DNA of 64,000 nt from Deltaproteobacteria bacterium (GCA_034670305.1 JAXMNT010000002.1:192001-256000), one strand, 5' to 3'; positions 6,791 through 58,339 are shown, numbered from the stretch's first letter. Made by a program: numbers and translations. Notes: generated by a model not told the origin, from the sequence alone.

Positions 6791-6953
6791 TTCGGCGTCG
6801 GCTTCGGCGTCGGCGTCGGCATCGGCATCGGCGTCGGCATCGGCATCGGCTTCGGCGTCGGCTTCGGGATCGGCTTCGGCTTCGGCTTCGGCTTCGGCTT
6901 CGGCCCCGAACAGGGGCAGGGGCAAGGGCAAGGGCAGGGGCAAGGGTAGCGGG
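6791..6953. repeat. Composite hexamer tract 1: (NTCGGC)n then (GGGCAR)n
   Basis: About 19 NTCGGC units followed by GGGGCA/GGGCAA units; intergenic. Confidence 0.95.
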
Positions 6954-6964
6954 CCTTTGGCCCG

Positions 6965-7939
6965 CTAGGCGTCGTACATACCCAGCGCCCAGCGCAGGGT
7001 GTCTCGATCGATGTTCTGGCCGGTGTGCACGATGACCACCCGCTTGCCCGCGAGTTTGGTCTTGAGCTTCTCCGCCGCGGCGTAGGCCGCAGCAGCCGCG
7101 CCTTCGGCGACGTTGTGGGTGGTCTCGAGCGCGACGCGCACGCCCATCTTCATCTCTTCTTCGCTGACCTCGACGACTTCGTCGACTTGGTCTTTCACGA
7201 TCGAGAAGGGCAGCTCGAACGCGCGCCGAGTGGCGAGCCCTTCCGCGAAGGTGTCCGCGCTCTCGACCTCTTCGAGTTTGCCGCTCTTCAAACTCTTGGC
7301 GAGCGCGTTGGCGCGCTCGGACTGCACCGCGACGATGGTCACGTCGGGCCGCATCGTGCGCATCGTCGTGACCACGCCCGCGAGGCCGCTGCCACCACCG
7401 ACCGGCACGATGATCGCGTCGACGTCTGGAAGGTCCTCGACGATCTCCATCGCGTAGGTGCCCACGCCCGCGATCAAGTGCGGGTCGTTGGCCACGTGCA
7501 CGTAGCGGAGGTCGTCGTTCATCGCGCGGGCTTCGGCTTCCGCGCACGCGGCTTCGAAGTCGTTGCCGTGCACGAAGAGTTCACCGCCGAGCGCTTCGAT
7601 GTTCGCGTTGGTCTCGCGGTTGTTGCCCTTCGGTACGTAGATGACCGCGCGGGACCCGAACGCGCGCGCCGCCCATGCGAGTGAGAGCCCGTGCGAGCTG
7701 CGCGTCGCGGTGACGACGCCCCGGCGGCGCTGCTTGTCGCTCAAGCTCGCGAAGAGGTTCACGCCGCCGCGCACCTTGAACGCGCCGATCGGGAGATGGT
7801 TTTCGTGTTTGACGTACGCGTCCAGTCCCAGCCGCGCGCTCAAGAGCGGATGGCGGTAGAGCGGCGTGCGACGAACGTGTCGATGAACGATGGGCCAGGC
7901 GCGAAGGACGTCACGAAAGCCGACGATGGGTTCTGACAA
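6965..7939 (-). CDS. PLP-dependent threonine/serine dehydratase family enzyme
   Basis: KHENHLPIGAFKVRG (PLP lysine), VPVGGGSG, TFAEGLA. Confidence 0.88.
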   Translation of the reverse strand: MSEPIVGFRDVLRAWPIVHRHVRRTPLYRHPLLSARLGLDAYVKHENHLPIGAFKVRGGVNLFASLSDKQRRRGVVTATRSSHGLSLAWAARAFGSRAVIYVPKGNNRETNANIEALGGELFVHGNDFEAACAEAEARAMNDDLRYVHVANDPHLIAGVGTYAMEIVEDLPDVDAIIVPVGGGSGLAGVVTTMRTMRPDVTIVAVQSERANALAKSLKSGKLEEVESADTFAEGLATRRAFELPFSIVKDQVDEVVEVSEEEMKMGVRVALETTHNVAEGAAAAAYAAAEKLKTKLAGKRVVIVHTGQNIDRDTLRWALGMYDA

Positions 7940-8070
7940 CGAAAGTTTCTCCGAATGGGAAAGAGGGTCTGGGAGCGCACTCCGGGACAGCCCGTGAGTC
8001 TACAACGTCACGACCCCTCGATGGATCATGTTCTCGTGGAAGCGGGAAACCCAAGGGCAAGCGCATGCGC

Positions 8071-9798: not shown

Positions 9799-12249
9799 GT
9801 GCACTCACGACGTCGTCAGTTTTGGATCTTCACCGGCATCCTCTTCAGCGGGATCGCCGCGCTCCTCGTGGTCGGCATCGGCGGGTTCGGGATTTGGGAT
9901 CCCTGGGAGCTGAACGCCGCCGACGCGGCGCGGGATCTGCTGGACGGCGAGCTGGAGCAGACCGCCCCGCCGCTCAGCCGCTGGCTCATCGCGCTCGGGT
10001 TCTCGTCCTTCGGCGTCAGCGAGTGGTCGGGCCGGCTGCCGATCGCACTGGGCGGGCTGCTGGTCCTCGGCGCCGCGTTCTGGGGCGGCCGGAAGTTCTC
10101 GTCGGATCGGACCGCGCTCTACGCGGCCTTGATCGCCGGCAGCTCCCCGCTCTTCCTCTTCAACGCGCGCCAAATGCTCGGTACCGCCTGGGGCATGGGC
10201 GCGACCGGACTGCTCGGGGTGATCGCCGCGTCCGCAGCCCTCCTGCCGTGCACCTCCGAGGACGCGTCGGTGCGCATGCGCCACGCCGTGCTCCACGTCG
10301 CAGGACTCGCGGGCGCGTTCGCCCTCGCCCTGCTCGCGGCCGGTGGCCTCTCCGGCGCCGCGCCGCCCTTGCTCGCGGTCGCTGGTGTGCTGCTCCTGCG
10401 GCAGCGCATCCCCACCGACCGAGCGCAGCAGGTGCGCGCGCTCGCGGTCGTCGGCTTGGCCGTGGTGACCGCGGTGCTGGTCGGCTTCGCCATCTCCACG
10501 GACGCGGCCGAGTACAGCATGTGGCTGGGCGGTTCCCCGCGCGGCGGCGATCCCCCCACCTTCGAGGCGGCCCTCGAGGTCGTGTTCCACTCGTTCGCGC
10601 CGTGGAGCGCCTTGGTGCTCATCGCCTGCGCCCGCATGCTCGCCCCCGCCTCCGCGGAGGCGCCCACCGAAACGGCCGACGCGACCGATGTGGACGAAGA
10701 CGCCGATGCGGACGAAGACGACGCAGAGGACGAGGCACTCGGCGGCCTGGCCCTGAGCGAAGCGTTCGCGGACTTCCGGCTCGTGCTCGTACTCTGGGCA
10801 GCGTTCGGTTACGCGGCGCTCAACCTCTACACCGCCCGCTACGGCCCGACGACCTACCTGGCGATCGTGCCCCTGGCCCTCGCGGTCGCGCTCTTCCTAC
10901 GCGACATCGAACAGTCCAAGCGCGCCTGGTGGCCAGAAGCGGTCATCTCGATGCTCTTCGTGGGGCTGCTCATCCGCGACTTCGCCCTCTACCCCGAGAG
11001 CCCCGTCCGCGGACTGCCGATCTCTGGGCTGACGGTGCCGGAGATCTTCGACGCGAAGGCGGGCTGGGCTGGGGTGCTCGGCCTCTTCGGACTCGCGCTC
11101 CTCGTCGGCATGGGCGTGCGACCCAAGGGCGCGCGGCCAGACTTCCGCGCCCCCTACCGCTGGCTTCGCGATCGCTACCGGCGGGACATGGCCGGACGGA
11201 TTTGGATCGGGCTCGGCGCGACCCTCGCAGCCGCGATGCTCATCTTCGGCGCGGTGTGTTGGATCGGCGGCGACGCCCTCCCCTTCACCTCCATCGTGAC
11301 GCGGGTCGGCAAGAAGATCGCGCTCGTGCCGATCGTCATTCCGATCCTGGTCGCCGCGGTCCCGTGGGGCAGCGCACTCGCGAACCTGATCGGCCACTGG
11401 CGCATGGTGCCGCTGCTCGGCGCCGGCGCCGTGTTCGCGGTCTACGCTGCGCATGGCTACCTGCCGGAGCTCAGCCAGCACTTCTCTCCGCGCGAGGTCT
11501 ACGACAGCTACAACGAGCTCGCGGGCGAAGGCGAGCCGCTCGCGGAGTACGGCGTCGGCGGCCGGGCCGCGGCCTACTACGCCGACGGAGAGACGACGGA
11601 CCTCGACACCCAGCCGCAGTTGCAAGAGTGGCTGGCGCGCGAAGAGCGGGTGTGGGCGGTGGTGCCGGCGGATGATCTCGCCGCGATCAACCGGACCTTC
11701 CGCCAGGCGCACCAGCGCCACCTCTACGTCGCGGACGCGCGTTCGGCGCGGGTGCTGCTGGTGACCAACCAGAACATCGCTGGCCGCGAGAACCAGAACT
11801 TCATCGCGGGCGCGGTGCTCGACGAAGCGCCGCGGATTCAACACCGCGTGGGTGGCCGTTTCGACGACAAGATCGAACTCATCGGCTACGACCTCGACCT
11901 GCCGAACGAAGGCTACGTCGGCGCCGGGCAGGCGTTCACCGTGACCTGGTACTGGCGCGCGCTGACCCGGGTCGGCGGCTCCTACAAGATCTTCTTGCAC
12001 GTCGACGGCCACGGCAACCGGCTCAACGGCGACCACGACCCGGTCGACGAGCGCTACCCGGTGCGGCTCTGGGACGAAGGCGACATCGTCGTCGACCGCC
12101 AGACGTTGCGCGTGCCCGCGAACTACCGACCTGGCCCGTACACGTTCTGGATCGGCTTCTTCAGCGGCAACTCCCGCCTGAGCGTCCACCCCGAAGAACG
12201 CGACGACGGAGCCCAGCGCATGAACGCCGGCACCGTCATGGTCCGCTGA
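9799..12249 (+). CDS. Polytopic membrane glycosyltransferase, ArnT/PMT-like (GT-C fold), with C-terminal soluble domain
   Basis: GIWDPWE loop, PPLSRW, FGVSEWSGRLP, many TM segments; start re-assigned to GTG 9799 because the upstream ORF part overlaps the M23 gene. Confidence 0.75.
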   Translation: MHSRRRQFWIFTGILFSGIAALLVVGIGGFGIWDPWELNAADAARDLLDGELEQTAPPLSRWLIALGFSSFGVSEWSGRLPIALGGLLVLGAAFWGGRKFSSDRTALYAALIAGSSPLFLFNARQMLGTAWGMGATGLLGVIAASAALLPCTSEDASVRMRHAVLHVAGLAGAFALALLAAGGLSGAAPPLLAVAGVLLLRQRIPTDRAQQVRALAVVGLAVVTAVLVGFAISTDAAEYSMWLGGSPRGGDPPTFEAALEVVFHSFAPWSALVLIACARMLAPASAEAPTETADATDVDEDADADEDDAEDEALGGLALSEAFADFRLVLVLWAAFGYAALNLYTARYGPTTYLAIVPLALAVALFLRDIEQSKRAWWPEAVISMLFVGLLIRDFALYPESPVRGLPISGLTVPEIFDAKAGWAGVLGLFGLALLVGMGVRPKGARPDFRAPYRWLRDRYRRDMAGRIWIGLGATLAAAMLIFGAVCWIGGDALPFTSIVTRVGKKIALVPIVIPILVAAVPWGSALANLIGHWRMVPLLGAGAVFAVYAAHGYLPELSQHFSPREVYDSYNELAGEGEPLAEYGVGGRAAAYYADGETTDLDTQPQLQEWLAREERVWAVVPADDLAAINRTFRQAHQRHLYVADARSARVLLVTNQNIAGRENQNFIAGAVLDEAPRIQHRVGGRFDDKIELIGYDLDLPNEGYVGAGQAFTVTWYWRALTRVGGSYKIFLHVDGHGNRLNGDHDPVDERYPVRLWDEGDIVVDRQTLRVPANYRPGPYTFWIGFFSGNSRLSVHPEERDDGAQRMNAGTVMVR

Positions 12250-12308: not shown

Positions 12309-12680
12309 ATGGCCAAGCTGGACGACGACGAACGGCGCGCGCACAGCCGCTTCGTCACGAAGCTGAAGGTCGACATCCGTTCGGACGATCACTTCCTCTT
12401 CGCGTACATCACGAACATCAGCGAGATGGGCATCTTCATCCGCTCGGACGAACCGATGGAGCTCGGCACCGAGGTGACGCTCGGGTTCGGCGGCGACGGC
12501 CCGGGCGACGTCTCGCTCGAACTCGATGGAGTGGTGGTCTGGGTCAACCCCGTGCGCCTCGGCGAGAACCTGAACCCCGGCATGGGCGTCCACTTCCCGT
12601 CCTTGACGCCCGAGCAACGCGAGACCCTGGTCGAGCTGATCCGCGCCATCGCGTACCTAGACGACCAGCCCACGAGCTGA
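12309..12680 (+). CDS. PilZ-domain protein (TIGR02266 type)
   Basis: RRAHSR (RxxxR) and NISEMG motifs, GVVVW, PGMGVHF. Confidence 0.9.
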   Translation: MAKLDDDERRAHSRFVTKLKVDIRSDDHFLFAYITNISEMGIFIRSDEPMELGTEVTLGFGGDGPGDVSLELDGVVVWVNPVRLGENLNPGMGVHFPSLTPEQRETLVELIRAIAYLDDQPTS

Positions 12681-12712
12681 GGTCGGGAGCGACACGCGGG
12701 ACGCGCGCGGAC

Positions 12713-13020
12713 GCGGCAGCGGTAGCGGTAGCGGTTTCGGAAGCGGTAGCGGACTCGGAAGCGGTTGCGGTTTCGGAAGCGGACTCGGAAGCGGCAGCGG
12801 CAGCGGTAGCGGTTTCGGAAGCGGTAGCGGACTCGGAAGCGGTTGCGGTTTCGGAAGCGGACTCGGAAGCGGTTGCGTTCGGAATCGGCGTCGGCGTCGG
12901 CGTCGGCTTCGGCATCGGCTTTCGGCCTCGGCGTCGGATCGGACCGAACCGCGGGCACGGGCACGGGCACGGGCACGGGCACGGGAACCGCACATCCTCT
13001 CCTTCGGATTCGGATTCGGC
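12713..13020. repeat. Composite hexamer tract 2 with a 78-bp higher-order duplication, a polarity switch and (GGGCAC)5
   Basis: GCGGTA/TCGGAA/GCGGAC units, then NTCGGC, then GGGCAC, then GGATTC; between two convergent PilZ genes. Confidence 0.95.
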
Positions 13021-13065
13021 GCCACCACCAGCCTCAGCGAGGGGGCGTGCCGCCCGCCCTTCCCC

Positions 13066-13599
13066 TCAGCCCACGAGCTGCGTCGCGCCTGGCCACCAGC
13101 GCATGCCGGCGGTCAGGAAGTACGAGCTGCTGGCTTGATCGATCGCGTCGGACAGCTCCGTGTCCTCGACATCGAGCGACTCGACCTCTTCGATCCAGAC
13201 CATCTCGCTCGGGCCGGTGCGCGGCTTCTCGGGCAAGGGCGGCGGCAGTCCGAGCAGGCTCGCGCGGAGCTCGTCTTCGGCTTCTGCCTGAACGCCGACG
13301 AAGCGCACGCCCATGCCCGAGCGTGCGCGGTCTCGGCGGCGGCGGCGCAGCACTGCGCGTTCGACCCGCGCCATCAGCGTGAGGGATCGGACGCGGCCCG
13401 GAGGCACGATGTCGAGCACCATCTCGGTGCCGGGCTCGAGCAGGAGCTGGCTCTCGATGAACGCGCCGCGTTCGCTCAGGTCACGGACCCGATGGAGTGC
13501 CGGCCCCGCCCAGCCTTCGGCGAGCACTTCCGCGCCCACGTCCACGGCACGACGGATCTCGTTGCGATGATGAACCAAGACTTCGACCGACTGCAGCAT
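13066..13599 (-). CDS. PilZ-domain protein
   Basis: RNEIR (RxxxR), DLSERG, GMGVRF. Confidence 0.8.
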   Translation of the reverse strand: MLQSVEVLVHHRNEIRRAVDVGAEVLAEGWAGPALHRVRDLSERGAFIESQLLLEPGTEMVLDIVPPGRVRSLTLMARVERAVLRRRRRDRARSGMGVRFVGVQAEAEDELRASLLGLPPPLPEKPRTGPSEMVWIEEVESLDVEDTELSDAIDQASSSYFLTAGMRWWPGATQLVG

Positions 13600-15700: not shown

Positions 15701-15845
15701 CCGCTTCCGCTTCAGCTTCCGCTTCCGGTTTCCGCTTCCGCTTCCGCTTCCGCTTCCGCTTCCGCTTCCGATTCCGCTTCCGCTTCCGCTTCCGCTTCCG
15801 CTTCTGCTTCTGCTTCTGCCGCCGCTGCCGGCTGCCGCTTCCGCG
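15701..15845. repeat. Hexamer tract 3: (CCGCTT)n/(CTGCTT)n
   Basis: Tandem hexamers between the rpsI terminator and argC. Confidence 0.95.
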
Positions 15846-15865
15846 CCGCCTCCGCTCCCAAACGC

Positions 15866-15919: not shown

Positions 15920-16327
15920 TCAACGCTTCGAGTACTGGAACTTCTTGCGGGCGCCCGGCTGACCGGGCTTCTTGCGCTCCTTCTTGCGGGAGTCGCGGGT
16001 GAGAAGGCCTTCCTTCTTGAGCGCCGGCTTGAGGTCTTCGTCCATCGCGACGAGCGCGCGGGAGATGCCGTGGCGGACCGCTTCGGCCTGCGACGACACG
16101 CCGCCGCCATCCACGTTCACCGTGACGTCGTACTGACCACGCTTGGCGACCGCGTCGAAGGGCTGCTCGATGATCATGCGAAGCACCTCGCGCGGGAAGT
16201 AGTCCGCGAACGTGCGCTTGTTGATCGTGATGGTGCCGGTTCCGGTGCTGAGGAAGACGCGCGCGACCGCGTTCTTCCGTCGTCCGGTGCCGTAGAACTT
16301 ACCGTGAATCTCTTTGGGCCTGGCCAT
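15920..16327 (-). CDS. rpsI: 30S ribosomal protein S9
   Basis: GTGRRK, GGGVSSQA, ERKKPG...QYSKR. Confidence 0.98.
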   Translation of the reverse strand: MARPKEIHGKFYGTGRRKNAVARVFLSTGTGTITINKRTFADYFPREVLRMIIEQPFDAVAKRGQYDVTVNVDGGGVSSQAEAVRHGISRALVAMDEDLKPALKKEGLLTRDSRKKERKKPGQPGARKKFQYSKR

Positions 16328-18018: not shown

Positions 18019-21000
18019 ATGGCGGAGGTGGAGGAGCCGGACGAGGAAGCACTGCGGGTGGGCGGCGAGGGATCGGTGCGCCCGGGGACCGACGCAGACA
18101 CAGAAGCAGAAGCAGAAGCAGAAGCCGATGCAGAAGCAGAAGCAGAAGCCGATGCAGAAGCAGAAGCAGAAGCAGAAGCAGAAGCAGAAGCAGAAGCAGA
18201 AGCAGAAGCAGAAGCAGATGCCGATGCCGATGCCGATGCCGATGCCGATGCCGATGCCGATGCTTTGGCCGTGGACGACCGGATGGACGGCGGGGAGGTG
18301 GTGGCGAAGCCGTACGAGCCGAACGCGATCTTGCGGTGGGTGTACGGGCGGTTCTTCAGCCACATCCATGTAGACGAGACGTGGAGTGGCGCGGTGCGGG
18401 AGTCGGCACGCAAGGGGGTGGTCGTGTACGTGATGCGCAGCATCTCCTTCCTCGACTTCTTGTGTCTCGACTTCCTCCTGAAACGGTTCGGCCTGCCGCT
18501 CGTGCGGTTCGTCAACGATCTGGGGCTGTGGATCCTCGAACCCTTTGGCAAGGGCGGGCGCCGGCTCCGACTCAAGCGGCAGATCCCGGAAGCGCAGGCG
18601 CTCACCGACGTGATGAGTGAGCACTACTCCGCCCTGCTCTTCTTGAGACGCGCGCCAAGATTTGGCCGGACCGCGCGCAAGGGCCAGAAGCTCGAGACCG
18701 ATCTCATCCGCACGCTCGTGGAAGCACAGCGGAAGATCTCCGAACCCATTCTCCTCGTGCCGCAGACCTTCGTCTGGTCGAAGCTGCCGCCGAAGCGGCG
18801 GCGCAGCATCGTCGACCTCTTCTTCGGACCGGTGGAGTGGCCAGGGAAGATCCGCGTGTTCTTCCAGTTCCTCTTCAACTACCGCAACGCGCTCTTGCGC
18901 ACCGGAGAGCCCTTCGACCTCGCCGCCTTCATCGAAGGGCATCAGGAGCTCACCGACGCCGAGATCGCCGACAAGGTGCGGTACGCCATGCTGCGGCGAA
19001 TCCAGCGCGAACGAACGCTGGTGCTCGGGCCGACGAAGAAGACGCCGGGCCGGATCCAAGAAGAACTTTTGCGCAGCCCCCGAGTGCGACGGCACATCCT
19101 CGCAGCCGCGCGCACGTCGAAGAAGAAGATCCCGAAGATCGAACGGGAGGCGCGCAAGGACCTCGACAAACTCTGCGCGCAGCAGACCCCGTACATGCTG
19201 GGGGTCCTCTCGCGGTTGCTCAACTGGGTGTTCAGCCGGATCTACGACGGCGTGGTGGTCGACCCCGAAGGCATCGAGCGGGTCCGGGAAGCTGCGCGCG
19301 AGGGAACGCTGATCTACCTGCCGAGCCACAAGAGCCACGTGGACTACCTGGTGCTCAGCCACGTGCTCTACCACCGCGCGTTGGCACCGCCGCTCATCGC
19401 CGCCGGCGAGAACCTGAGCTTCTTTCCACTCGGTCCCATCCTTCGCCGCGGCGGCGCCTTCTTCATCAAACGTTCCTTCCGTGGCAAGAAGCTCTACGCG
19501 GCGCTGGTGGACGCGTACCTGCGGAAGCTCATCGTCGAAGGGTTCCCGATCGAGTTCTTCATCGAAGGCGGACGCTCCCGGACAGGCAAGTTGCTCGCCC
19601 CGAAGTTCGGGCTGCTCTCCATGGTGGTGGACGCGGCGCTCCGGCTCCGGATGCGCAAGGTCTTCTTCGTCCCGATCTCGATCGGCTACGAGCGGGTGAT
19701 CGAAGAGCGCAGCTACGTGCACGAACTCGGTGGCGGAGAGAAGCAGGACGAGAACGTCGGCGGGCTCTTGAAGACGCCCGATGTGCTCCGCTCGAAGTAC
19801 GGGCGGCTCTACGTACAGTTCGGCAAGATCCTCTCGTTTCAGGACGCGCTCGACGAGGTGGTCGGCCAAGGCAAGTCGGACGACCGCGAGGCGATCACGC
19901 CGAAGCAGCGCCGCGCGCTCGTGCAGCGCATCGCGCACCGCGTCACGTACCGCATCGACCGGGTCACCGTCGTCACCCCAGCGGCGTTGGTGGCGTCGGC
20001 GCTTCTGGTGCACCGCCGCCGCGGCATCACCCAGCGCGCGCTCTTCGAACGGTGCCGGGTGTTGCTCGACTCCCTTCAGCGCCTCGGTGCCCGCATCGCC
20101 GACTCCCTGCTCACCGAGAGCGACGAGCTGCGTCTCGACACCCTGGAGGAAGCGCTCCAGCTCTTCGAAGACGCCAAGCTCATCAAACGCGCGGAGGCCG
20201 CCGAAGCGATCTTCCAGGTGCAGGACCAGCGGAGGCTCGCGCTCGAGTACTACAAGAACAACATCGTGCACTTCTTCGTGCCGTCCGCGCTGATCGGCGC
20301 CGTGTTGCAAGCGAGCGGCGACGTCCTGTTGACCGAAGACGAACTGCACCAGCGGGTTCAGGTGCTCTCGCGCCTGTTCAAGTATGAGTTCATGTTCCGC
20401 GCCGACGCGCCTTTCGACGACATCTTCGACGACGCGCTCGCGACCATGCTCGACGCGGGCGAGATCGAACGCGTCGAACCCCGCCGACGCCGAGACGACG
20501 ACAACCCACTTGCCGCGCTCGAAGGCGTCGCGCTCGAGGATGTGGATTCGGATGTGGATGGCGAAGCCGAAGCCGAAGCCGAAGCCGAAGCCGAAGCCGA
20601 AGCCGAAGCCGAGCCCGAATCCGAAGCCGGAGCCGGAGCCGATGCCGATGCCGATGCCGATGCCGATGCCGATGCCGATGCCGATGCCGATGCCGATGCC
20701 GATGCCGATGCCGATGCCGATGCCGATGCCGACGCCGAAGCCGACACCGACGCCGACACCGAAGCCGACACCGAAGCCGAAGCCGAAGCCGACACCGACG
20801 CCGACGCCGACGCCGACACCGAAGCCGACAGTGACGGGACGGTTTTGCGGCAGGGGGGTGGGGTCGCGGGGCGCCGGGTGGAGATGTACGCCGCGATGCT
20901 GCGCGCGTACATCGAGGCGTACCTGCTCGCGGTGCGTGCGGTGAGCGGACTGGACCCTGAAGGCGTGGACCGCAAGGGCTGGGTGAAGCGCACGCTCGCG

Positions 21001-23395: not shown

Positions 23396-23679
23396 TCGGG
23401 CTTCGGCGTCGGCATCGGCGTCGGCTTCGGCTTCGGCTTCGGCTTCGGCTTCGGGGTCGGCGTCGGCATCGGCGTCGGCTTCGGCGTCGGCTTCGGCATC
23501 GGCGTCGGCTTCGGCATCGGCTTCGGCTTCGGCTTCGGCTTCGGCTTCGGCTTCGGCATCGGCATCGGCATCGGCATCGGCATCGGCGTCGGCGTCGGCT
23601 TCGGCTTCGGCTTCGGCGTCGGAGGAACCACAGGCACGGGCACGGGCACGGGCACGGGCACGGGCATGGGCGGGCGGGG
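23396..23679. repeat. Composite hexamer tract 6: (NTCGGC)n then (GGGCAC)n
   Basis: About 37 NTCGGC units, short spacer, GGGCAC units. Confidence 0.95.
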
Positions 23680-23728
23680 ACCATCATCTCCCAGAGCAGG
23701 CGTCGACGCGGGGTGCTACGGTCCGCGC

Positions 23729-24356: not shown

Positions 24357-24920
24357 GTGCGTTGGCCTGCGCGACTCGGTGGGCTGCTCCTGGTGCTCTC
24401 CGCCTGCGGAACGACGAACCAGGCGGTGGTGGGCCAGTCGACGGGCGGCCCTCCCGAGACGCCCATCGAGCTCGCGCTTCGCCGGCCTGCAGGCGACTGG
24501 ATCCATGTCGGAGACCTGCGCGGGCGACCGGTGCTCCTGTTCGTCTTCGCGACCTACGACCCGGCCTGCCAGGCCGCGCTTCGACCCCTCTCGCGCTTCG
24601 CGCGCCACCATCCGGACGTGCATGTGATCGGTGTCGCTGCACAGCCGGACGCAGAGTTGCTGGTGGACGCCTACGAGTCCGCGCTCACCCCCGGCTTCCC
24701 GCTCACCTACGACCCCGAGCACGACCTCCGGTACGGCACGAGCCCGCTCGGGCGCATCGCCGGCATCCCGCTCTTCATCATGCTGGACGCCTCCGGCTTC
24801 GAAGTCGGCCGCTACCACGGCTTCCCGAGCTCCCGCTCGCTCGACATGCTGCTCGAGCGCGCCCGCGCCCGCGGCGGAGAACACGAGCCGGCCACGGACG
24901 TCCCGCTGCTCGCGGACTGA
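24357..24920 (+). CDS. TlpA/redoxin-like thioredoxin-fold lipoprotein
   Basis: LSAC lipobox, [18 protein letters not shown] (DxxC in place of CxxC), GIP cis-Pro motif. Confidence 0.7.
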
Positions 24921-24933
24921 GTCCGGGAGCCCC

Positions 24934-25298
<365 letters not shown>

Positions 25299-25350
25299 GC
25301 ACGGGCCGCTTCCGCTTCGATGAATGCCGGGGCGGGGGTATGCTGCGCGC

Positions 25351-26235
25351 ATGTCGGTTCAAGTGTTCGTCGTCACCGGGCTGAGCGGCGCGGGCCGAAG
25401 CACCGCGCTGCATGTCCTCGAGGACGTGGGGTTCTACTGTTGCGACAACCTCCCGCCCGAACTCGCGCCCCGGCTCGTGGAGATCGCCAAAGCCGGCGGA
25501 CTCGAACAACTCGGCCTCGGCGTGGATGTGCGGACCGGTGAGTTTCTGAGCGGCGCAGACGGCGTCATCTCGACGCTGCGCTCCGAAGGCAACCAGGTCG
25601 AAGTGCTCTTCTTCGACTGCGCCGACCGGGTGCTGATCCGACGCTACAGCGAGAGCCGCCGGCCCCATCCGCTTGCGCCCGGAGGCGACCTGACCGCCGC
25701 GATCCGATCGGAACGCGCGCGCTTGTCGCCGCTGCGCGCCGACGCGGCGCACGTCTTCGACACCACCGAGATGAGCGTGCACGATCTGAAGCGGGCGCTG
25801 CTCGATCACCTGGCCCGCGGGGGCGAAGCCCACACGATGGTCACACGCGTGCTCTCGTTCGGGTTCAAGTACGGTCTGCCCGCGGACGCGGACCTCGTCT
25901 TCGACCTCCGCTACCTGCCGAACCCGCACCATGTGCGTGCCCTGCGTCCGCAAACCGGCCTCGAAGAAGCGGTCTCCGAGTACGTGTTGCAGAACGAAGA
26001 AACCGAAGAGCTCCTTGGTGACCTCGAGCAGCTCTTCGCCCACACGCTCCCGAGGTACGAACGCGAAGGCAAGGCGTACCTCACCATCGCGATCGGTTGC
26101 ACCGGCGGGCGGCACCGCAGCGTGGCCGTCGCGGAAGAGCTCACCAAGCGGCTGCGGAAACACCGCGACGTCTCGATCTCCCACCGAGACGTCGAACGGG
26201 CCGGACCACGACCCAAACCCGACCCGACTTCGTGA
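25351..26235 (+). CDS. rapZ: RNase adapter / P-loop NTP-binding protein RapZ (YvcJ family)
   Basis: [35 protein letters not shown]. Confidence 0.95.
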
Positions 26236-26504
26236 CCACCGAGCGCAGCTTCGAGATCGTCAACAAGCTTGGGCTGCACGCACGCGCCGCCGCCAAACTG
26301 GTCCGCTGCGCCGGTGGTTTTCAGAGCCACGTCGAGGTCGAGAAGGACGGACAACGCGCCGACGCCAAGAGCATCATGGGCGTGCTCTTGCTCTGCGGTG
26401 AGTGCGGCTCCCGGCTCACAGTGCGTGCCGAGGGTGAAGACGCCGAAGAAGCGGTGACGGCCATCGGAGCCCTCATCGCGGGCCGGTTCGGCGAAGACTC
26501 GTGA
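26232..26504 (+). CDS. ptsH: Phosphocarrier protein HPr
   Basis: GLHARAA (His15) and DAKSIMG (Ser46); GTG overlaps rapZ stop. Confidence 0.95.
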   Translation: MTTERSFEIVNKLGLHARAAAKLVRCAGGFQSHVEVEKDGQRADAKSIMGVLLLCGECGSRLTVRAEGEDAEEAVTAIGALIAGRFGEDS

Positions 26505-28255
26505 CCGACGGCGACCTACCTGGGCCCATGCGGCTCGAAGCGCGCGGCATCGGTGCTTCGCCGGGCATCGCGGTCTCGACGTTGCACCTCGTGCCGCGGC
26601 CCGGACGCGCACGGCATCGCCGGGTTCGAGATCGAGCCAAAGAAGCCGAGCGGCTCCGCGGTGCGATCGACGCGAGCCGCGCCGAGATCGAAGACGCACG
26701 CGATGGGCTGACCGAAGAGATGGCGCTGGTGCTCGACGCGCAACTCTTGATGCACAGCGATGCCCTCCTGGTCGAAGCGGCCGTGCAGCACATCGTGACG
26801 GATGGGCTCGGCGCGGAGTGGGCCCTCGAACGTACCGTCGCCGCGCTCAAGAAGCCGCTGCTCGCCGCGTCGTCTCGCTACTTTCGAGAACGGGCGCACG
26901 ACATCGAACACGTCGGCCAACACATTCTTCGACACCTGCGCGGCGACGAGCGCCTCATGTTGCCCGACGGGGCGCGGGTCTTGGTGGCGAACGATCTCGC
27001 CGCGACCGATGCGGTGCGGGTGCTCGGCGACGCGCGGGTGCTCGGTCTCGTCACCGAACTCGGCAGCGCCACGAGCCACACAGCGCTCTTGGCGCGCGCC
27101 TTCGGCGTGCCTGCCGTGGTCGGCGTGCAGGGGCTGGCGATGCGGGCGCTCGCACCCGGGACGCCCATCGTGGTGGATGGCCTCAGCGGCCGGGTCGTGG
27201 TCTGTCCCACCGCGGCGGAGTCCACCGACGCCACCGAGCGGTCGACGCGCTACCGGTCCTTTGCGAGCGCGCTCCGAGCCAAAGCGGACGAGCCGGTGCA
27301 GACCGTGGACGGCGCCGCGGTCACGCTGCTGGCCAACATCGAACTCCCGGCCGAAGCGTCCTCGGCCTCGGTGCGCGGGGCCGCTGGCGTCGGCCTCTAC
27401 CGAACGGAGTACCTTTACGTCGAACGCGACGAGCCACCGGACGAGGAGACGCAGGTGGCGGTCTACCGCGAGGTCATCGAGGCGTGTGCCCCCGTCACCC
27501 TCCGGACGTTCGATCTGGGCGGCGACAAACTTCCTCGGCAACTTCGTTTTCCTCCCGGCGCCAACCCCGCGCTGGGCGTCCGCGCCACCCGGCTGTGGGC
27601 GCGCGAACCCGAACTCATGGAGACTCAGATCCGTGCCGTGCTGCGCGCCGCGAGCGCTGGTGAAGTGGAGCTGATGTTCCCGCTCGTCGAAGGCCCCGAA
27701 CACATGCGCACGTTGCGGGACCGGGTGCGCGCCTGCGCCGAGGCGTTGCGCGCCGATGGGACCGAGGTGCCAGAGATCCCGCTCGGCGCGATGGTCGAAC
27801 TGCCGAGCGCCGCGGTGATGGCGACCGCCCTGTGTGAGGTCGCGGACTTTCTCTCGGTCGGGACCAACGACCTCGTGCAGTACACGCTCGGGGTCGACCG
27901 GACGAACCCGGAGGTCGCCCACCTCGCGGACCCGCTGCACCCCGCGGTCCTGCATCTGCTCTCGCAGACCGTGGAGGCCGCGGATGCGAGCGGCACGCCG
28001 CTGACGATGTGCGGCGACATGGCGACGGATCTTGTCGCGTTGCCGGTCGCGCTCGGGCTCGGGTTCCGGTGCTTCTCGGTACCGGTCTCCATGCTGCCGT
28101 TTGTCCAGGAGCTCATCCGGCGTGTCGACTTGGCTGCGCTCACGGCACTGGGTGGGCAGGCGCTGCGGGAGACCTCGACCGCGGCGGTGCGGGCGCTCGT
28201 TCGGGAGGCGCTCGAGGGGACGTTGGGTGGACTGTGGGTGGAGCTGCAGGCGTGA
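26501..28255 (+). CDS. ptsI: PEP-protein phosphotransferase (PTS enzyme I)
   Basis: TSHTA phospho-His, GLYRTE, RTFDLGGDK, SVGTNDL, MCG. Confidence 0.95.
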   Translation: MTDGDLPGPMRLEARGIGASPGIAVSTLHLVPRPGRARHRRVRDRAKEAERLRGAIDASRAEIEDARDGLTEEMALVLDAQLLMHSDALLVEAAVQHIVTDGLGAEWALERTVAALKKPLLAASSRYFRERAHDIEHVGQHILRHLRGDERLMLPDGARVLVANDLAATDAVRVLGDARVLGLVTELGSATSHTALLARAFGVPAVVGVQGLAMRALAPGTPIVVDGLSGRVVVCPTAAESTDATERSTRYRSFASALRAKADEPVQTVDGAAVTLLANIELPAEASSASVRGAAGVGLYRTEYLYVERDEPPDEETQVAVYREVIEACAPVTLRTFDLGGDKLPRQLRFPPGANPALGVRATRLWAREPELMETQIRAVLRAASAGEVELMFPLVEGPEHMRTLRDRVRACAEALRADGTEVPEIPLGAMVELPSAAVMATALCEVADFLSVGTNDLVQYTLGVDRTNPEVAHLADPLHPAVLHLLSQTVEAADASGTPLTMCGDMATDLVALPVALGLGFRCFSVPVSMLPFVQELIRRVDLAALTALGGQALRETSTAAVRALVREALEGTLGGLWVELQA

Positions 28256-29316
28256 GTGCCACGCAGCGGTGGCTGCTGGGCGTGTGGGTCGCGGGGGCGT
28301 TGGCGGGGTGTGGTGGGGCTGCTTCGGAAGCGGTGGCCGCGCAGGCGGAAGCCGAAGCCGAAGCGGAAGCCGAAGCCGCAGTTGAAGGCGACTCCGAAGG
28401 CGACTCCGAAGCCGACTCCGAAGGCGACTCCGAAGCCGAAGCCGAAGCCGACTCCGAAGCCGACTCCGAAGCCGAAGCCGAAGCCGAAGCCGAAGCCGAA
28501 GCCGATGCCGATGCCGACTCCGAAGCCGACTCCGATGCCGACTCCGCCGAATCCGAAGCCGGTTCCGAATCCGGCTCCGCCCTCTCCTTCTCGCTTCGGG
28601 AGGTGCAGGTGGAGCGGGGGTCGCATCGGGTGCCGGGGGATGCACCGCATGCGGTGGTGATCGAAGCGGGGGCGCCTCGGTGGATCGTGGTCTTCTTGCA
28701 CGGGTGGAGTGGGTGCGTGCGGGTGTTGGCGCATCCGGGGTTCGTGACCTGTCGACCGTCGGATCCGTCGCGGGCGCGGCGGGCGGGGTGGGATCTGCGG
28801 GGCACGTTCGAGTCCGCCGGCGTGCCAGCCGTGTTCGTACTGGCGCAGCTCTCGTTCAACCGCCGGGAGGGGGGCGCGGGGCGGTTTCTCGAAGAGGGGT
28901 TTGCGCGCGACTACTTGGCGGCGCTCGGGCTGCCGGACGATCTCCCCATCGCACTGGTCGCCCACAGCGCGGGGTTCGAGACCGCGCTGGCGTGGATTCG
29001 ACGAGGCGGGCTCGACGGGCGCATTCGCTCGATTGCGCTGATGGACGCGCTCTACGCGGGGACGGAACCGTTCGCCGATTGGGTCGCCGACGACGAGGCC
29101 CGGACGCTCGTCAGCTGGCACACCGGCCGGGGCAGCACCGCCCGGCAGAACGCCCGGCTCGTGGGGCTGCTCGCGGGACGATCGGTGGCGGTGTCCGAGA
29201 CCCTCGGACCAAGCCGCGCCATGGTCGCCCTCACCGAGGCCCCGCATGGGGAGGTGCCGACCGAACACCTCGTCGAGTACCTGCAATGGCTCGACGCACG
29301 CCGGGAGGCGCGCTAA
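28252..29316 (+). CDS. Lipoprotein with acidic repeat linker and alpha/beta-hydrolase-like domain
   Basis: LAGC lipobox, VFLHGW, AHSAG nucleophile elbow, LMDALY, terminal PHG; GTG overlaps ptsI stop. Confidence 0.65.
28345..28578 (+). repeat. Hexamer tract 8: (GCCGAA)/(GACTCC) in frame in the hydrolase lipoprotein
   Basis: Encodes AEAEADSE... Confidence 0.9.
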
Positions 29317-29325
29317 ACGCCGGCC

Positions 29326-29784: not shown

Positions 29785-29822
29785 CCCCTGAGCGCACTCA
29801 GCCGCTGCGGTACACTGGCGCC

Positions 29823-44321: not shown

Positions 44322-44426
44322 GGAACCGCAGTGCTGGCCTCCGGAACCGCAGTGCTGGCCTCCGGAACCGCAGTGCTGGCCTCCGGAACCGCAGTGCTGG
44401 CCTCCGGAACCGCAGTGCTGGCTCTG
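44322..44426. repeat. 21-bp tandem repeat GGAACCGCAGTGCTGGCCTCC x4 plus one degenerate copy
   Basis: Head-to-tail copies, no spacers; intergenic. Confidence 0.95.
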
Positions 44427-44453
44427 GAAGGCACAGCGCGCTACCGTCCCTCG

Positions 44454-52695: not shown

Positions 52696-53008
52696 CGGCT
52701 TCGGCTTCGGCTTCGGCGTCGCCTTCGGCCTCGGTTTCGGCGTCGGCTTCGGCGTCGGATTCGGATTCGGATTCGGATTCGGATTCGGCTTCGGATTCGG
52801 CGTCGGCTTCGGCTTCGGCGTCGGCTTCGGCTTCGGCTTCGGCTTCGGCTTCGGCCTCGGCGTCGGCCTCGGTTTCGGCGTCGGCTTCGGCGTCGGCGTC
52901 TGCGTCTGCGTCGGCTTCGGCGTCTTCGGCTTCGGCGTCGGCTTCGGCTTCGGCTTCGGCGTCGGCTTCGGCTTCGGCTTCCGAGTCGGAGTCGGAGTCG
53001 GCTTCGGG
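52696..53008. repeat. Hexamer tract 9: (NTCGGN)n
   Basis: About 50 units (TTCGGC, GTCGGC, TTCGGA, GTCTGC, GTCGGA) between convergent genes. Confidence 0.95.
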
Positions 53009-53030: not shown

Positions 53031-54548
53031 CTAGCCGACTTGCTCTTCCGCCTCCGCCCGCAGCCGGTCCCGAAACGTCGACCGAGGGATCCCCAGCGAT
53101 CGCGCGGCCGCGCTCAGGTTGCCTTGGTGCCGGTCGAGCACCTGGTAGAGCTGCGCCGGCGCCTCCGGTCGCCACTTCGGTCCAAGGATGCGGTCAAATG
53201 CCTTGCGCACTTCCGCGCAGGTCACGGTCGGCCCGCTGGAGAGCGCCGCGGCCTGCATCACCACGTTGCGAAGCGAGCGCACGTTGCCCGGCCAGTGATG
53301 GCCATGCAGCAGCCGCATCGCGTCCTCGGAGAGTTCGCGCCGCCCCAGTTGCACACCCGCGAGCTCGAGAAAGTGCGCGACAAGCGGCTCGATGTCTTCC
53401 GGACGCTCCCGCAACGGAGGCACGACGATCACCAGCCGCAACAATCGAAACAACAGGTCGGTTCGGAACGTACCGAGGGCGGTCATCGCCCGAAGATCCC
53501 GATGGGTCGCGCAAACGAGACGCACCTCGACAGGGCGTTCGGTCTCCGAGCCCACCCGGCGGACGCGCCAGGTCTCGAGCACCCGAAGCAGACGGGCCTG
53601 AAGCGCCAGCGGCAGTTCGCCGACCTCGTCCAGAAACAACGTGCCGCCGTGGGCCTGCTCGAACACACCGCGGTGTTGTTCGACCGCACCACTGAACGCG
53701 CCGCGGTCGTGTCCGAAGAGCTCCGACTCGACGAGCGACGCCGTCAGCGCGCCCGCGTTGAGTGCCACGAACGGCTGGTTCCGGCGCGGGCCGCGGTCGT
53801 GCAGCGCACGCGCGATGCCTTCTTTGCCCGCGCCGGTTTCGCCCAGCACGAGCACTGGCCACTCGAGCGCGGCGTACCGTTCGACCTCCGCCAGGGTGCC
53901 GAGCATCCGGGGACTCGCCGCCACGAACTGCGCGCGCCCGTCCCCGCGATCCCCGCGCGCCACCAGTCGCAGCGCGGTGCGACCGACATGAACCACCGCG
54001 CCAGCCCCGAGCTTCGCCTTCGAGATCCGGCGCGCTTCGACCCAGGTCCCGTTCCGACTCTCGAGATCCCGAACCACCGCGCCACCGAGGGGACACGGCT
54101 CGATCACGCAATGCTGGCGGCTCACGGTCTTGTCGAGCAGCCGCAGGTCGCACTCTGGGTGGGAACCGACGGTGAGGGGCAGGTCGAGTGGATGCACCGT
54201 GGCGCCCGGTCCGTCCCCGACCAGCACCGAGAGCCGAGTCTCCAAATCGGGGACGGTCATCGGGTGCGTCGACCGATCGGGCGCTTTCGACGTCGTGCGC
54301 ACCCGAACGAGTTCGTAGGCTCCGAACGAAACGCCCATGCCGATGCCGATCGGTCGGGCACCGGTGGCCACCCCTTCGAAGTACACGCCTCCGTCGCGGC
54401 GGAAGAAGCGGCCCGCCATGAGAGGCACGTCCGCGTCGTGCACCACCACATCGCAGTAGGCGCCTCGTCCAACGGCGACCGAACCACGGATCGGGAACTC
54501 ACGGAGCGGTTCGCCACGAAACCGAAGGAGAAGCGTGTCTTGGAACAT
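53031..54548 (-). CDS. FHA-domain sigma54-dependent transcriptional activator
   Basis: Two FHA-like domains (VSRQH, SRNGT), [32 protein letters not shown]-terminal HTH. Confidence 0.92.
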
Positions 54549-54667
54549 GGCGCTTCCTCGACCGCCCACCCCCCTGGTTGCCCCTCCTCGACCTCTGGGC
54601 CGCCAGTCTCGCGAAGCGAGCCAGGCCCGTAGCGGCAAGCAATAACGTGTACTAGGGTGCGCCGCCC

Positions 54668-56808: not shown

Positions 56809-57522
56809 ATGCTTCACCTCCTCCAGCCGACGGATCCGACCTGGGTCGATGCCGCCGCTGCGGACCTCGGAGCGCTCCTCTCGGACCACGCCCACTGCGA
56901 GCTCAAGGCGGCCCAGAGCGCGCTCGCCATCGTGGGGCGTTTCGCGGACGATGCGCCCGAGATGGTGGAGCCCCTGTGCGACCTGGCGCGCGAAGAGACC
57001 GAACACTTCCGACAGGTCTACGGACACCTTCGCGCCCGTGCCACGACCAGCACTGCGATTCCCGAACCCAGCACTGCGACTCCCGAAGCCAGCACTGCGG
57101 TTCTCACAGCCAGCACTGCGACCCCCGAAGCCAGCACCGCAGGCAACGGCGAGACCCCCGCGTCCGAAGTCGTCGCGGGGCTGGGCAAGCCCGAGCCGGA
57201 CGCCTACGTCAACGCGTTGCGCAAAGCGGCCCGCGCCGACGGACCCGCCGCACCGATCCTCCTCGACCGTTTGATCGTGAGCGCACTCATCGAAGCCCGA
57301 TCCTGCGAGCGGTTCAAGTTGCTCGCGGACCACTTGCCGAACCCAGAGCTGCAGACCTTCTACCGGGGTTTGATGGAATCCGAGGCGCGGCACTTCTCGC
57401 TCTTCCGCGGCCTGGCAGAGCATCGGTTCGGCGCCGACGCTCGCCGCAGGCTGGAGAAGCTCGCGGAGCGTGAAGCGGCGATCGCAGAACAGCTGCCGCT
57501 CGGCCCGACGGTGCACGGATGA
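56809..57522 (+). CDS. miaE: tRNA-(ms2io6A37) hydroxylase MiaE with repeat insertion
   Basis: DHAHCELKAA, EETEHF, IEARSCERF, SEARH di-iron ligands. Confidence 0.9.
   Translation: MLHLLQPTDPTWVDAAAADLGALLSDHAHCELKAAQSALAIVGRFADDAPEMVEPLCDLAREETEHFRQVYGHLRARATTSTAIPEPSTATPEASTAVLTASTATPEASTAGNGETPASEVVAGLGKPEPDAYVNALRKAARADGPAAPILLDRLIVSALIEARSCERFKLLADHLPNPELQTFYRGLMESEARHFSLFRGLAEHRFGADARRRLEKLAEREAAIAEQLPLGPTVHG
57047..57141 (+). repeat. Degenerate 21-bp tandem repeat (core CCAGCACTGCG) x5 in frame inside miaE
   Basis: Encodes TSTAIPE-PSTATPE-ASTAVLT-ASTATPE-ASTA. Confidence 0.85.
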
Positions 57523-58259
57523 GCGATTCCGATCCCATCGCCAAGACGCGACCGCCGGTCGAAGAAGAGTCGAGCTGGGAACGCATCAAGGCGAACGTTC
57601 GGACCATCGGTGGGGCTGTGCTGCTGGCGGTGTTCATCCGCATCGTGCTCTTCGAAGCGTTCGAGATCGATGGGCCCTCCATGGAGCCCACGCTCCAGCA
57701 CGGCGACCGCGTCGTCGTGGCCAAGATGCTCTACGGCCTGTTCCTGCCGAAGATGCACGAAGCGGTGCTCTCGTGGGGCGAGCCGCACGTCGGAGACGTC
57801 GTCATCGTCAACAGCCCCGCGGACGATGTGGACATCGTGAAACGAGTCATCGGTGTACCGGGCGACACCATCGAACTGCGCGATGGGTTGATCATCCGCA
57901 ACGGCGAGCCCCTCGAGCGCACCGAGGTGGCCGAGTGCGAACTCGACATGCAGCTGAACGAGTCGGCCGGCTGCTGGGTCTACGAAGAGACCGTGGGCGA
58001 CGTGACGTACCGCATCAGCCAGTTGCGTGGACACGAAGACATGGACACGCCCGTGCGCCGCGTCCCCGAAGGCCACATCTACATCCGCGGCGACCACCGC
58101 GACCGGTCGAACGACAGCACCAACCCCCTCATCGGCTTCGTGCCGATCAGCCGGGTCAAAGGCAAAGCGCTCTTCATCTACCTCAGCTGCGACGAGGAAG
58201 AAGAGGGTTGGCTCTGCCCGTCCCCCCGCTGGGACCGTTTCTTCGAAGCCGTCGACTGA
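57519..58259 (+). CDS. lepB: Signal peptidase I
   Basis: SMEPTL (catalytic Ser), VKRVIGVPGD (Lys), GDHRDRSNDS. Confidence 0.93.
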   Translation: MSDSDPIAKTRPPVEEESSWERIKANVRTIGGAVLLAVFIRIVLFEAFEIDGPSMEPTLQHGDRVVVAKMLYGLFLPKMHEAVLSWGEPHVGDVVIVNSPADDVDIVKRVIGVPGDTIELRDGLIIRNGEPLERTEVAECELDMQLNESAGCWVYEETVGDVTYRISQLRGHEDMDTPVRRVPEGHIYIRGDHRDRSNDSTNPLIGFVPISRVKGKALFIYLSCDEEEEGWLCPSPRWDRFFEAVD

Positions 58260-58282
58260 CTGGCCGCGGCTTCTGCTTTCCG

Positions 58283-58339
58283 TCGGGCACGGGCGCGGGC
58301 AGGGCAAGGGCACGGGCAAGGGCACGGGCAAGGGCACGG
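58283..58339. repeat. Tract 10: (GGGCAC/GGGCAA)n
   Basis: Alternating GGGCAC/GGGCAA hexamers between lepB and the radical SAM gene. Confidence 0.9.

Follow-up and report, generated by a model that had tools for sequence, protein, structure and literature searches.

Between positions 6790 and 58339 of a 64,000 nt stretch of the genome of a deltaproteobacterium (C2:192001-256000; this whole stretch is called the window in the following, and positions are counted from its first nucleotide) lie ten tracts of tandemly repeated hexanucleotides. Their units differ from tract to tract, and nearly all follow the pattern NCNGWN on one strand. Why should separate repeat tracts share one period and one pattern? 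An earlier note, made from the sequence of the window, had argued that independent microsatellites should not converge in this way. It suggested a family of repeat elements that is copied, gene-converted or enzymatically synthesised, or one selected as a protein- or RNA-binding platform in 3' regions.

We followed the tracts through the whole genome and into related genomes. They do not appear to be ordinary microsatellites, and a single mobile element does not account for them either. The explanation we favour, at somewhat better than an even chance, is that a lineage-specific family of (CCGANN)n simple sequence repeats (SSRs) has run away in this genome, growing by slippage, and is tied to copied selfish elements that seed the tracts or make use of them.

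The tracts are one family

Tandem Repeats Finder reported period-6 arrays at all ten places in the window, with 5-51 copies and 71-100% matches. The ten merged loci comprise 2,265 bp or 3.5% of the window, in agreement with the earlier estimate of about 2.3 kb and 3-4%, and the units named at that time were correct as judged from the program output and from reading of the sequence.

The period-6 scan was run on the whole genome (7,933,502 bases in 105 contigs, 61-72% G+C, labelled G000 here; G002, G012 and so on denote other genomes compared). Period-6 arrays account for 1,375 of the 4,321 tandem-repeat rows and for 150,815 bp in total. After merging, 1,169 composite hexamer loci were obtained, comprising 169,922 bp or 2.1% of the genome. 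The leading units are GCCGAA (430 rows, 74,630 bp) and GGGCAA (406 rows, 14,725 bp), followed by GGGCAC (86 rows), GCGGAA (82), GCCGAT (78), and GCCGAC (59). At this scale, too, the tracts form a nonrandom family with one grammar, as had been supposed: in the median locus 60% of the hexamers fit NCNGWN on one strand, the corresponding values being 3% for the opposite strand and 12.5% for length-matched random segments.

Five GCCGAA units with up to two mismatches were found 3,601 times in this genome, 265 times in G012, which belongs to the same family and another genus, and at most nine times in each of the 39 others among 40 relatives. The genome is that of a soil-type myxobacterium (Polyangiales); the window PlsB is nearest to that of metagenome-assembled Myxococcota/Polyangiales genomes (best identity 76%). 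The earlier note had proposed to compare orthologous loci: 20 of the 27 syntenic PlsB loci of relatives contain no period-6 array, and the other seven contain one or two. The hexamer pattern is neither a product of chance nor common to the relatives.

The six positions of the unit are not equally variable. Units with a single mismatch were counted in the 231 tracts with GCCGAA as commonest unit, and numbered 637, 40, 217, 22, 57, and 2,066 for positions 1 to 6, respectively. The grammar is a real constraint, consisting of a CCGA core and two free bases, and it is codon-like though frames are not kept.

A metagenome-assembled genome could contain such repeats as an assembly artefact. Contig ends are indeed found close to the tracts (164 of 210 within 240 bp of one), and the public contigs that we compared break at every tract; they come from a single study, whose four runs may include the source of the genome. 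No tract is bridged by these contigs, and the tract lengths rest on the assembly. The same contigs nevertheless show 0 differences to the unique segments, and in all four runs they enter each tract by 35-58 nt from both sides before they stop, while the depth of repeat words is about 900x that of unique sequence. Tracts of this kind also occur in a relative whose genome is a single contig. As the contigs enter the tracts without differences and the repeat words are so abundant, the tracts are not an invention of the assembly, and an artefact is extremely improbable. The earlier note had held that tracts unsupported by raw reads would refute it; the four runs support the existence of the tracts and leave their lengths without support.

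Tract bodies appear to change in place

Adjacent units are identical in 34% of the cases versus 14% expected, and differing neighbours differ by one base in 7,576 of 11,710 cases. Copying of the tract bodies from each other, as had been suggested, is contradicted by their words: among 1,764 complex words of eight units (at least five different units) none was common to two loci. Words of six units were shared by loci 126 times versus a mean of 63 after shuffling, an approximately twofold excess.

Phase is not conserved either. Phase shifts within tracts were frame-breaking in 117 cases and frame-keeping in 23, and the phase between a C-block (described below) and the adjoining tract is uniform modulo 6. 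In 299 tracts of 452 the NCNGAN pattern is on the strand that is locally richer in G, versus 153 in which it is on the other one (Fisher p 8e-12); its strand shows no relation to the one that most local genes use (p 0.45). A polarity exists with respect to GC skew and not with respect to genes in tandem gaps, which fits replication slippage better than a platform in 3' untranslated regions.

Loss of mismatch repair was considered as the cause of the repeat load and ruled out, since MutS and MutL are both present and uninterrupted in the genome. Taken together, the similarity of the units, the locus-specific words, the frame breaks, and the GC-skew bias fit local growth by slippage and disfavour both copying of whole tracts and translation; from them we infer slippage as the growth process.

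Placement relative to genes

Genome-wide gene context was obtained with a crude gene caller of our own (5,910 genes, 87% coding), the Pfam check covering the window. Tracts are present in 25.6% of the convergent, 13.1% of the tandem, and 10.3% of the divergent gaps. Relative to spacer length, there are 1.64, 0.89, and 0.37 such gaps per kb, respectively. Tracts lie at a median of 22 nt from a stop, and the start that comes next is a median of 75 nt away. The position near gene 3' ends noticed in the window is a general one, with convergent gaps exceeding divergent gaps. The NCNGWN strand had also been taken for the gene-sense strand, and this fails genome-wide: in tandem gaps it runs with the genes in 139 cases and against them in 138.

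We also considered whether the codon-like grammar hides coding repeats, namely for (Ala/Ser/Pro/Thr)-(Asp/Glu/Val) peptides. The variable positions would be the two wobble positions and the first base of the NCN codon, and 54 of the 995 testable loci are in frame inside genes, where they mostly read as AE, AD, SD, TE, PE, SA or GS repeats; the tract at 18101 has an open frame that continues into PlsB. Flank scoring, however, placed 941 of the 995 loci outside coding frames, a frame kept into the coding flanks being found at the 54 loci only. Moreover, the frame-breaking shifts outnumber the frame-keeping ones, the phase to the preceding block is uniform, the orientation in tandem gaps is random, and the units use GAA and not the GC-rich GAG. 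Hidden coding repeats are thus a very improbable source of the grammar.

G-blocks, hairpins, and CTAG-flanked elements

The (GGGCAN)n arrays, named G-blocks here (C-blocks in the reverse complement), have a fixed size. Exactly five units plus GGG, i.e., 33 nt with six G-triplets, are found in 300 of the 458 blocks. The blocks include 127 that are ends of one family of MITEs (miniature transposable elements with inverted repeats), and the five-unit mode holds for 121 of these 127 and for 179 of the 331 non-MITE blocks. The G-blocks are not free-running microsatellites.

Their orientation to the neighbouring gene is fixed as well. Of the non-MITE blocks, 149 of 327 are faced by a gene's stop no more than 60 nt away, 3' of the G-rich strand, at a median distance of 26 nt; the same is true of 81 among the 127 MITE blocks. 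This stop is TAG in 58% of the non-MITE and 91% of the MITE cases versus 29% genome-wide. A strong hairpin (-15 kcal/mol or lower) occurs on the stop side in 36%, on the other side in 9%, and at random control stops in 20%, and for the 33-nt block a G-quadruplex of about -14 kcal/mol is predicted. The fixed order of block and tract that the earlier note had recognised proved to be general: a sense tract follows 3' of a C-block in 124 cases versus 23-25 cases in the other arrangements. The G-block pattern was also matched in other genera, with 304 matches in G017, 242 in G004, 40 in G033, 33 in G013, and 31 in G019. The pattern GGGNAC x5, run as a backwards control, gave 301 matches in G036, a genome of another family of the same order. 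Together with (GGGAAC)n-type flanks in that genome (see below), these suggest that G036 has a large hexamer family of its own.

The MITE family comprises about 140 near-identical copies of 135-640 bp with CTAG at both flanks, each end consisting of a hairpin and a C- or G-block. Behind the CTAG similar termini of 16-18 nt are found, and the hexamer blocks are the subterminal inverted repeats. Exact copies of the core number 113, and the BLAST depth is 125-144 over about 190 nt. CTAG is present at 66 of the 81 stops adjoining MITE blocks. The C-terminus of a DDE_Tnp_1 transposase has survived in longer copies of the element and at the start of two contigs. These remnants gave three Pfam matches and 32 protein-fragment matches, the longest open frame having 279 aa. 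The parental insertion sequence (IS) with its CTAG target is presumably IS5-like, the tested assignment being the Pfam DDE_Tnp_1 match only; PF13359 gave no match. An intact transposase was not found in G000, and with a 52-aa query no full-length transposase was found in G004, G012, G013, and G017. As the assembly of G000 is 96% complete and broken at repeats, absence of the transposase is not established. One longer derivative (G000:C5:239450-240045) has an antisense remnant of the four-helix-bundle gene described below and the transposase C-terminus between a C- and a G-block, which indicates that two selfish components sometimes travel together.

Are the G-blocks and tracts selected 3'-end elements, such as terminators, insulators of convergent genes, template-strand G-quadruplex roadblocks, or RNA or protein platforms? 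The fixed size and orientation of the G-blocks, the hairpins on the stop side, the predicted G-quadruplex, the enrichment in convergent gaps, and the presence of G-blocks in several genera speak for such a role. The positional constraint within the tracts suggests some selection, and the GGGNATC repeats of Xanthomonas and Nostoc are alike in placement and preferred copy number according to the available part of the publication (PMC4692102). Against this role, the long tracts show no gene polarity in tandem gaps, the orthologous gaps of relatives do without tracts, and in the window only one hairpin (6947-6967) folds better than shuffled sequence. Finally, for 127 of the 458 blocks the copying, the fixed size, and the TAG/CTAG preference are explained by the blocks being MITE ends. 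We regard selected 3'-end elements as a rather unlikely explanation of the family.

Four-helix-bundle cassettes

The earlier note had raised the question of which gene families occur together with the tracts. One such family, known as 23S rRNA intervening-sequence protein, encodes a small, Avd-like four-helix-bundle protein. PF05635 has 47 matches in the genome, 39 of them above cut-off, TIGR02436 was above cut-off in all four proteins tested, and a match in the Protein Data Bank is 2GSC (E 1.5e-5). A tract of at least 48 bp is present within 400 nt of 36 of the 47 genes (77%), compared with 1,329 of 5,910 genes overall (22.5%) and 21% of the genes for 90-150 aa.

The genes are part of cassettes whose copies have in common a leader of about 250-400 nt, the gene, and a hairpin. 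The cassettes examined sit between protein genes. In 15 of 15 leader copies a sense tract lies within 80 nt upstream, always in one orientation. Orphan tracts outnumber the cassettes by about 15:1.

The pairing of cassette and repeat recurs in other genomes with other units. It was found at 18 of 20 loci in G012, at six of six in G002, where the units are of the (CAGTGC)n type, and at seven of seven in G036, where they are of the (GGGAAC)n type. In G013 three of seven loci were paired by arrays of period 6, 12 or 18, and the other four are near arrays with a period of 7, 13 or 14 nt. One unit family dominates each genome; for instance, (CAGTGC)5 has 186 matches in G002 and 0 in four other genomes tested. 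As a separate observation, the four-helix-bundle genes of G002, G012, and G013 are often paired convergently, with some 45-130 nt between the two genes and the arrays outside the pair (loci L043, L044, L049, L071-L073, and L076-L081).

We considered whether the cassettes are built with inverted arms, as in the intervening sequences of rRNA genes. Among 77 units from five genomes the arms are direct in 23, inverted in 11, and unclear in 12, and 31 have one or no arm; a duplex test in G000 gave 12, six, five, and 15, respectively. Inverted arms as the general build were rejected, the arms being mixed and mostly direct, and since direct arms are more frequent the picture of an RNase III stem does not fit in general.

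A reverse transcriptase beside the cassettes was searched for and rejected, as none of the three reverse transcriptase genes in the genome is adjacent to one. The nearest of these RVT_1 genes is about 5 kb away from a four-helix-bundle gene, so that no diversity-generating retroelement was recognised, template and variable repeats not having been searched. The statement of the earlier note that no enzyme for the repeats is encoded holds for the window; the genome, however, contains 32 C-terminal fragments of a DDE transposase and the 47 four-helix-bundle genes tied to repeats. A search of open-access papers in PMC and bioRxiv, which does not exclude subscription papers, found no report on repeats flanking four-helix-bundle genes among the papers listed, as judged from titles and the beginnings of abstracts.

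These cassettes bear on three further explanations. First, the tracts could be ordinary microsatellites that meet cassettes and IS copies only by common accumulation in permissive spacers. The locus-specific bodies would agree with this, as would the 71% of tracts for which no partner was identified (see below) and the known occurrence of long noncoding SSRs with units of 5-11 nt in prokaryotes. Accumulation in spacers does not predict, however, that 77% of the four-helix-bundle genes and merely 21-22% of other genes, small ones included, are near a tract, that the pairing recurs with different units in four further genomes, that all 15 leader copies adjoin a tract, and do so in the same orientation, that C-blocks precede tracts in 124 versus 23 cases, or that one unit family is dominant per genome. 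We give ordinary microsatellites only a small chance.

Second, the repeats could be made by sequence-specific synthesis or amplification through a templated or nick-dependent enzyme, possibly Avd-like proteins with a polymerase or reverse transcriptase. The available part of one publication (PMC10053308) describes PF05635 as resembling Avd, the accessory protein of the reverse transcriptases of diversity-generating retroelements, and 47 such genes are present here. An enzyme of this kind would account for amplification of units with a C-N-G-A core only and for unit families that are genome-specific and common to cassette arms and orphan tracts. It would also explain why positions of the unit differ 50- to 100-fold in their constraint, a difference not expected from neutral slippage. 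On the other hand, the three reverse transcriptase genes do not lie beside four-helix-bundle genes, of the two adenines in the unit a single one is variable, in contrast to the adenine-specific mutagenesis of diversity-generating retroelements, and slippage agrees with the polarity to GC skew and with the homogeneity of the blocks. Enzymatic synthesis is in our opinion improbable.

Third, the cassettes themselves could be a widespread selfish element with short tandem repeats as its working ends. A sequence-specific process dependent on the C-N-G-A core, in place of blind slippage, would then make or lengthen the repeats, and the cassette would move among the hundreds of tracts by recombination inside them. 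This is speculative and we consider it doubtful. If it were true, it is the repeat side that would have run away in this genome, occupying 2% of it and invading proteins as acidic linkers.

A proposed combined explanation

Slippage growth of a hexamer family together with copied partners would explain these findings in the following way. Each tract would lengthen, shorten, and diversify in place by replication slippage and point mutation. Tracts would persist where the harm is small, i.e., just 3' of stops and above all in convergent gaps, and inside genes only in those frames which read as linkers of small and acidic residues. The tracts would not be autonomous mobile elements; three copied partners would act as seeds for them or be targeted to them. 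The first partner would be the 33-nt (GGGCAN)5GGG block of G-quadruplex type beside a hairpin at the stop codon, the second the approximately 140 CTAG-flanked deletion derivatives of an IS with a DDE transposase, which carry the blocks as subterminal inverted repeats, and the third the four-helix-bundle cassettes (TIGR02436/PF05635, Avd-like) bordered by tracts. The anatomy, the counts, and the linkage of cassettes and tracts are observed; a direction of cause between cassettes and tracts would be an inference only.

Compared with this, the earlier idea of a copied family of repeat elements or a 3' platform is supported in part, namely for the nonrandom family, the block order, the position at 3' ends, and the existence of copied components (G-blocks of 33 nt, MITE-like elements, and cassettes with a four-helix-bundle gene). 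Copying of the tract bodies from one another and a polarity to genes in tandem gaps are not supported, and phase is not kept.

Several points weigh against our explanation. Plain slippage does not predict that bases 2, 4, and 5 of GCCGAA are nearly invariant. No identified partner module is nearby for 533 of the 748 NCNGAN tracts (71%), and for most tracts seeding by an element is therefore an extrapolation. No intact cognate transposase was found in the assembly. The genome-wide context statistics depend on a crude gene caller which was checked with Pfam only in the window, in an assembly of 105 contigs the direction of replication can only be approximated by the sign of the GC skew, and the tract lengths lack independent confirmation, as the public contigs end inside every tract.

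The tract loci of the window

The first locus combines several of the components. A (GCCGAN)n tract of 19 units was found by Tandem Repeats Finder at 6790..6904 on the minus strand, on which 19 of 26 hexamers fit NCNGWN. It is followed at 6914..6946 by a 33-nt G-block, (GGGCAR)5GGG, which is G-rich on the plus strand and for which the G-quadruplex option of ViennaRNA predicted a G-quadruplex of -13.9 kcal/mol. At 6947..6967 (minus strand) a hairpin of -17.5 kcal/mol (z -3.2; one of 200 shuffles as good) includes in its base the TAG stop of a PALP-enzyme gene (6965-7939, minus strand) that was confirmed by Pfam. Folding of the regions 6905-6975, 23625-23695, 12940-13070, and 12695-13025 was no better than that of shuffled sequences; only the hairpin at 6947-6967 was better.

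No four-helix-bundle gene is present in the window. Its only trace is an orphan cassette boundary module of about 80 nt at 6693..6771 (minus strand, defined by alignment, invariant columns 30-108), which is not followed by a cassette gene. This module lies directly after the tract at 6790 and is the counterpart of the first approximately 80 nt of the cassette leader; the part at C2:198693-198760 is 96% identical to cassette positions 4-74. In the four-helix-bundle cassettes this module separates the leader from the tract upstream.

The second locus starts 26 nt after the stop of a PilZ gene (12309-12680, plus strand) with a (GCGGWA/GCGGAA/TCGGAA)n tract at 12707..12877 (plus strand) that contains a 78-nt higher-order repeat. 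A (GCCGAN)n tract of opposite polarity at 12885..12937 (minus strand) and a G-block, (GGGCAC)5GGG, at 12952..12985 (plus strand) were both found by Tandem Repeats Finder. At 12986..13020 (plus strand) a conserved linker motif (the GGAGAGGATG-containing word on the minus strand) is followed by (ATTCGG)n. The linker motif occurs at about 15-30 loci genome-wide, and 15 tracts have it within 70 nt on their 3' side. The third locus, 15701..15856 (minus strand), is a (GCGGAA)n tract; it lies 63 nt downstream of the rpsI stop (gene at 15920-16327, minus strand).

Two tracts are related to PlsB. The (GCAGAA)n(GCCGAT)n tract at 18101..18263 (plus strand) is open in frame from an ATG at 18019 into a PlsB-like acyltransferase and would, as judged from the sequence, read (AE)n(AD)n; the PlsB of relatives is without residues 28-82, save for a partial match in L010. 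The tract at 20562..20828 (plus strand) is an in-frame insertion of 89 codons, (EA)n(DA)n, within the GPAT_C domain of PlsB according to Pfam and the translation: positions 1-266 of the GPAT_C profile are matched before the tract and positions 263-342 after it. This insertion is missing from the PlsB of all 14 relatives shown, out of 27 loci searched.

Tandem Repeats Finder also identified a (GCCGAN)n tract of 37 units at 23399..23622 (minus strand) and a (GGGCAC)n G-block at 23629..23671 (plus strand). The next locus begins 10 nt after the stop of a gene at 24357-24920 (plus strand) with the C-block (CCCGTG)5 at 24931..24962, followed at 24963..25300 by (GCTGTT/GCGGTT)n and then (GCCGAN/CCCGAN)n, including a frame-shifting 5-nt unit, both on the plus strand. 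The order (NTCGGC)n then (GGGCAM)n, which had been reported for four tracts, is indeed found at 6790, 12885, and 23399 and, as the reverse complement, at 24931.

A (GCCGAA/TCCGAA/GCCGAC)n tract at 28348..28579 (plus strand) lies 92 nt after the ptsI stop. The surrounding region, 25351-30788, is a cluster of rapZ, a small open reading frame, ptsI, and HPr kinase. The HPr-kinase reading frame (28680-30788, 702 aa) comes directly after the tract, and about 410 residues precede its kinase domains. A (GCCGAN/TCCGAA)n tract of 51 units at 52696..53007 (minus strand) occupies a convergent gap; the stop of a sigma-54 activator gene (53031-54569, minus strand) is 23 nt away. The last locus is a G-block array, (GGGCAM)9.5, at 58284..58339 (plus strand), 24 nt after the stop of a signal-peptidase gene and with no adjoining long tract.

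Apart from the hexamer tracts, the window contains two tandem arrays with a 21-nt period at 44322-44429 (5.2 copies) and 57047-57137 (4.3 copies). Their units are roughly mutual reverse complements, and they look like another small dispersed repeat family. A short in-gene 18-nt/9-nt repeat of the GACGAAGAC type at 10685-10733, absent from the list of the earlier note, is read as an acidic stretch. In an Rfam scan of the window a tRNA gene (5931-6002, minus strand) was the sole match reaching the gathering score.

Comparison with known systems

Long prokaryotic SSRs are the most obvious comparison. The surveys of Mrazek, Guo and Shah from 2007 reportedly found long SSRs with units of 5-11 nt in noncoding DNA. 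The tracts resemble long prokaryotic SSRs in their short head-to-tail units, mostly noncoding position, lineage specificity, and lack of a transposase of their own. As in microsatellites, the units are nearly perfect and arranged head to tail, and the loci evolve separately (0 of 1,764 words shared; 34% versus 14% identical neighbours). They differ in having 1,169 loci (2.1% of the genome) under one grammar, a strict positional constraint, polarity to GC skew, and physical linkage to cassettes and IS ends. For the 12-nt words of the tracts, open-access papers in PMC and bioRxiv gave only unrelated hits, subscription papers not being excluded.

The MITEs derived from DDE IS with a CTAG target share with the CTAG-flanked copies the terminal inverted repeats, the CTAG flanks, the approximately 140 short copies, the internal deletions, and the transposase remnants. 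Here, however, hexamer arrays of constant length serve as the subterminal inverted repeats, some copies carry a remnant of the four-helix-bundle gene, and the assembly has no intact transposase. From the intervening sequences of 23S rRNA the cassettes differ in that their arms are more often direct than inverted.

Hairpins just 3' of stops, some with GTAG...CTAC at the stem base, and 11 Y1_Tnp genes in the genome recall the repetitive extragenic palindromes (REP) and their associated tyrosine transposases (RAYT). In contrast to that system the Y1 genes here have their own, unrelated inverted repeats and the hairpin sequence varies by locus. A REP/RAYT origin of the hairpin-block modules was rejected, as the 11 Y1_Tnp genes are without G-block or hairpin flanks, bar one MITE upstream of one copy. 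These IS200-like transposase genes (PF01797) encode about 232 aa, and each of the 11 copies (contigs C20, C31, C38, C68, C1, C11, C59, C14, C55, C15, and C63) lies between its own long inverted repeats.

Within the open-access literature, and as far as the available part of the publication goes, the G-rich repeats of Xanthomonas and Nostoc are the nearest published case. According to that part, the GGGNATC and GGGGA(C/T)T G-quadruplex repeats are noncoding with a preferred copy number, are under-represented between divergent genes, lie within about 50 bp of stops, and were in general not found to be associated with mobile elements (Rehm et al. 2015, PMC4692102). The G-blocks described here are alike in their short unit containing G3, their preferred copy number, and their noncoding position close to stops. 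Their unit, in contrast, is the hexamer GGGCAN and neither of the heptamers GGGNATC and GGGGAYT, six G-runs are preferred and not four, and many copies are IS or MITE ends; here the G-quadruplex is a prediction only.

Significance

If our explanation holds, this genome would have one of the densest microsatellite loads among bacteria, and the load would have arisen in one lineage with mismatch repair intact. The tracts would break short-read assemblies, as seen at 164 of the 210 contig ends, would create variable acidic linkers in enzymes such as PlsB, and may serve as ready-made markers of strain variation. Simple repeats, gene-end blocks of G-quadruplex type, and small selfish cassettes, which are usually treated apart, would be linked with each other. 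Finally, a widespread and uncharacterised family of four-helix-bundle proteins would gain a testable partner, a tandem repeat with a conserved core.

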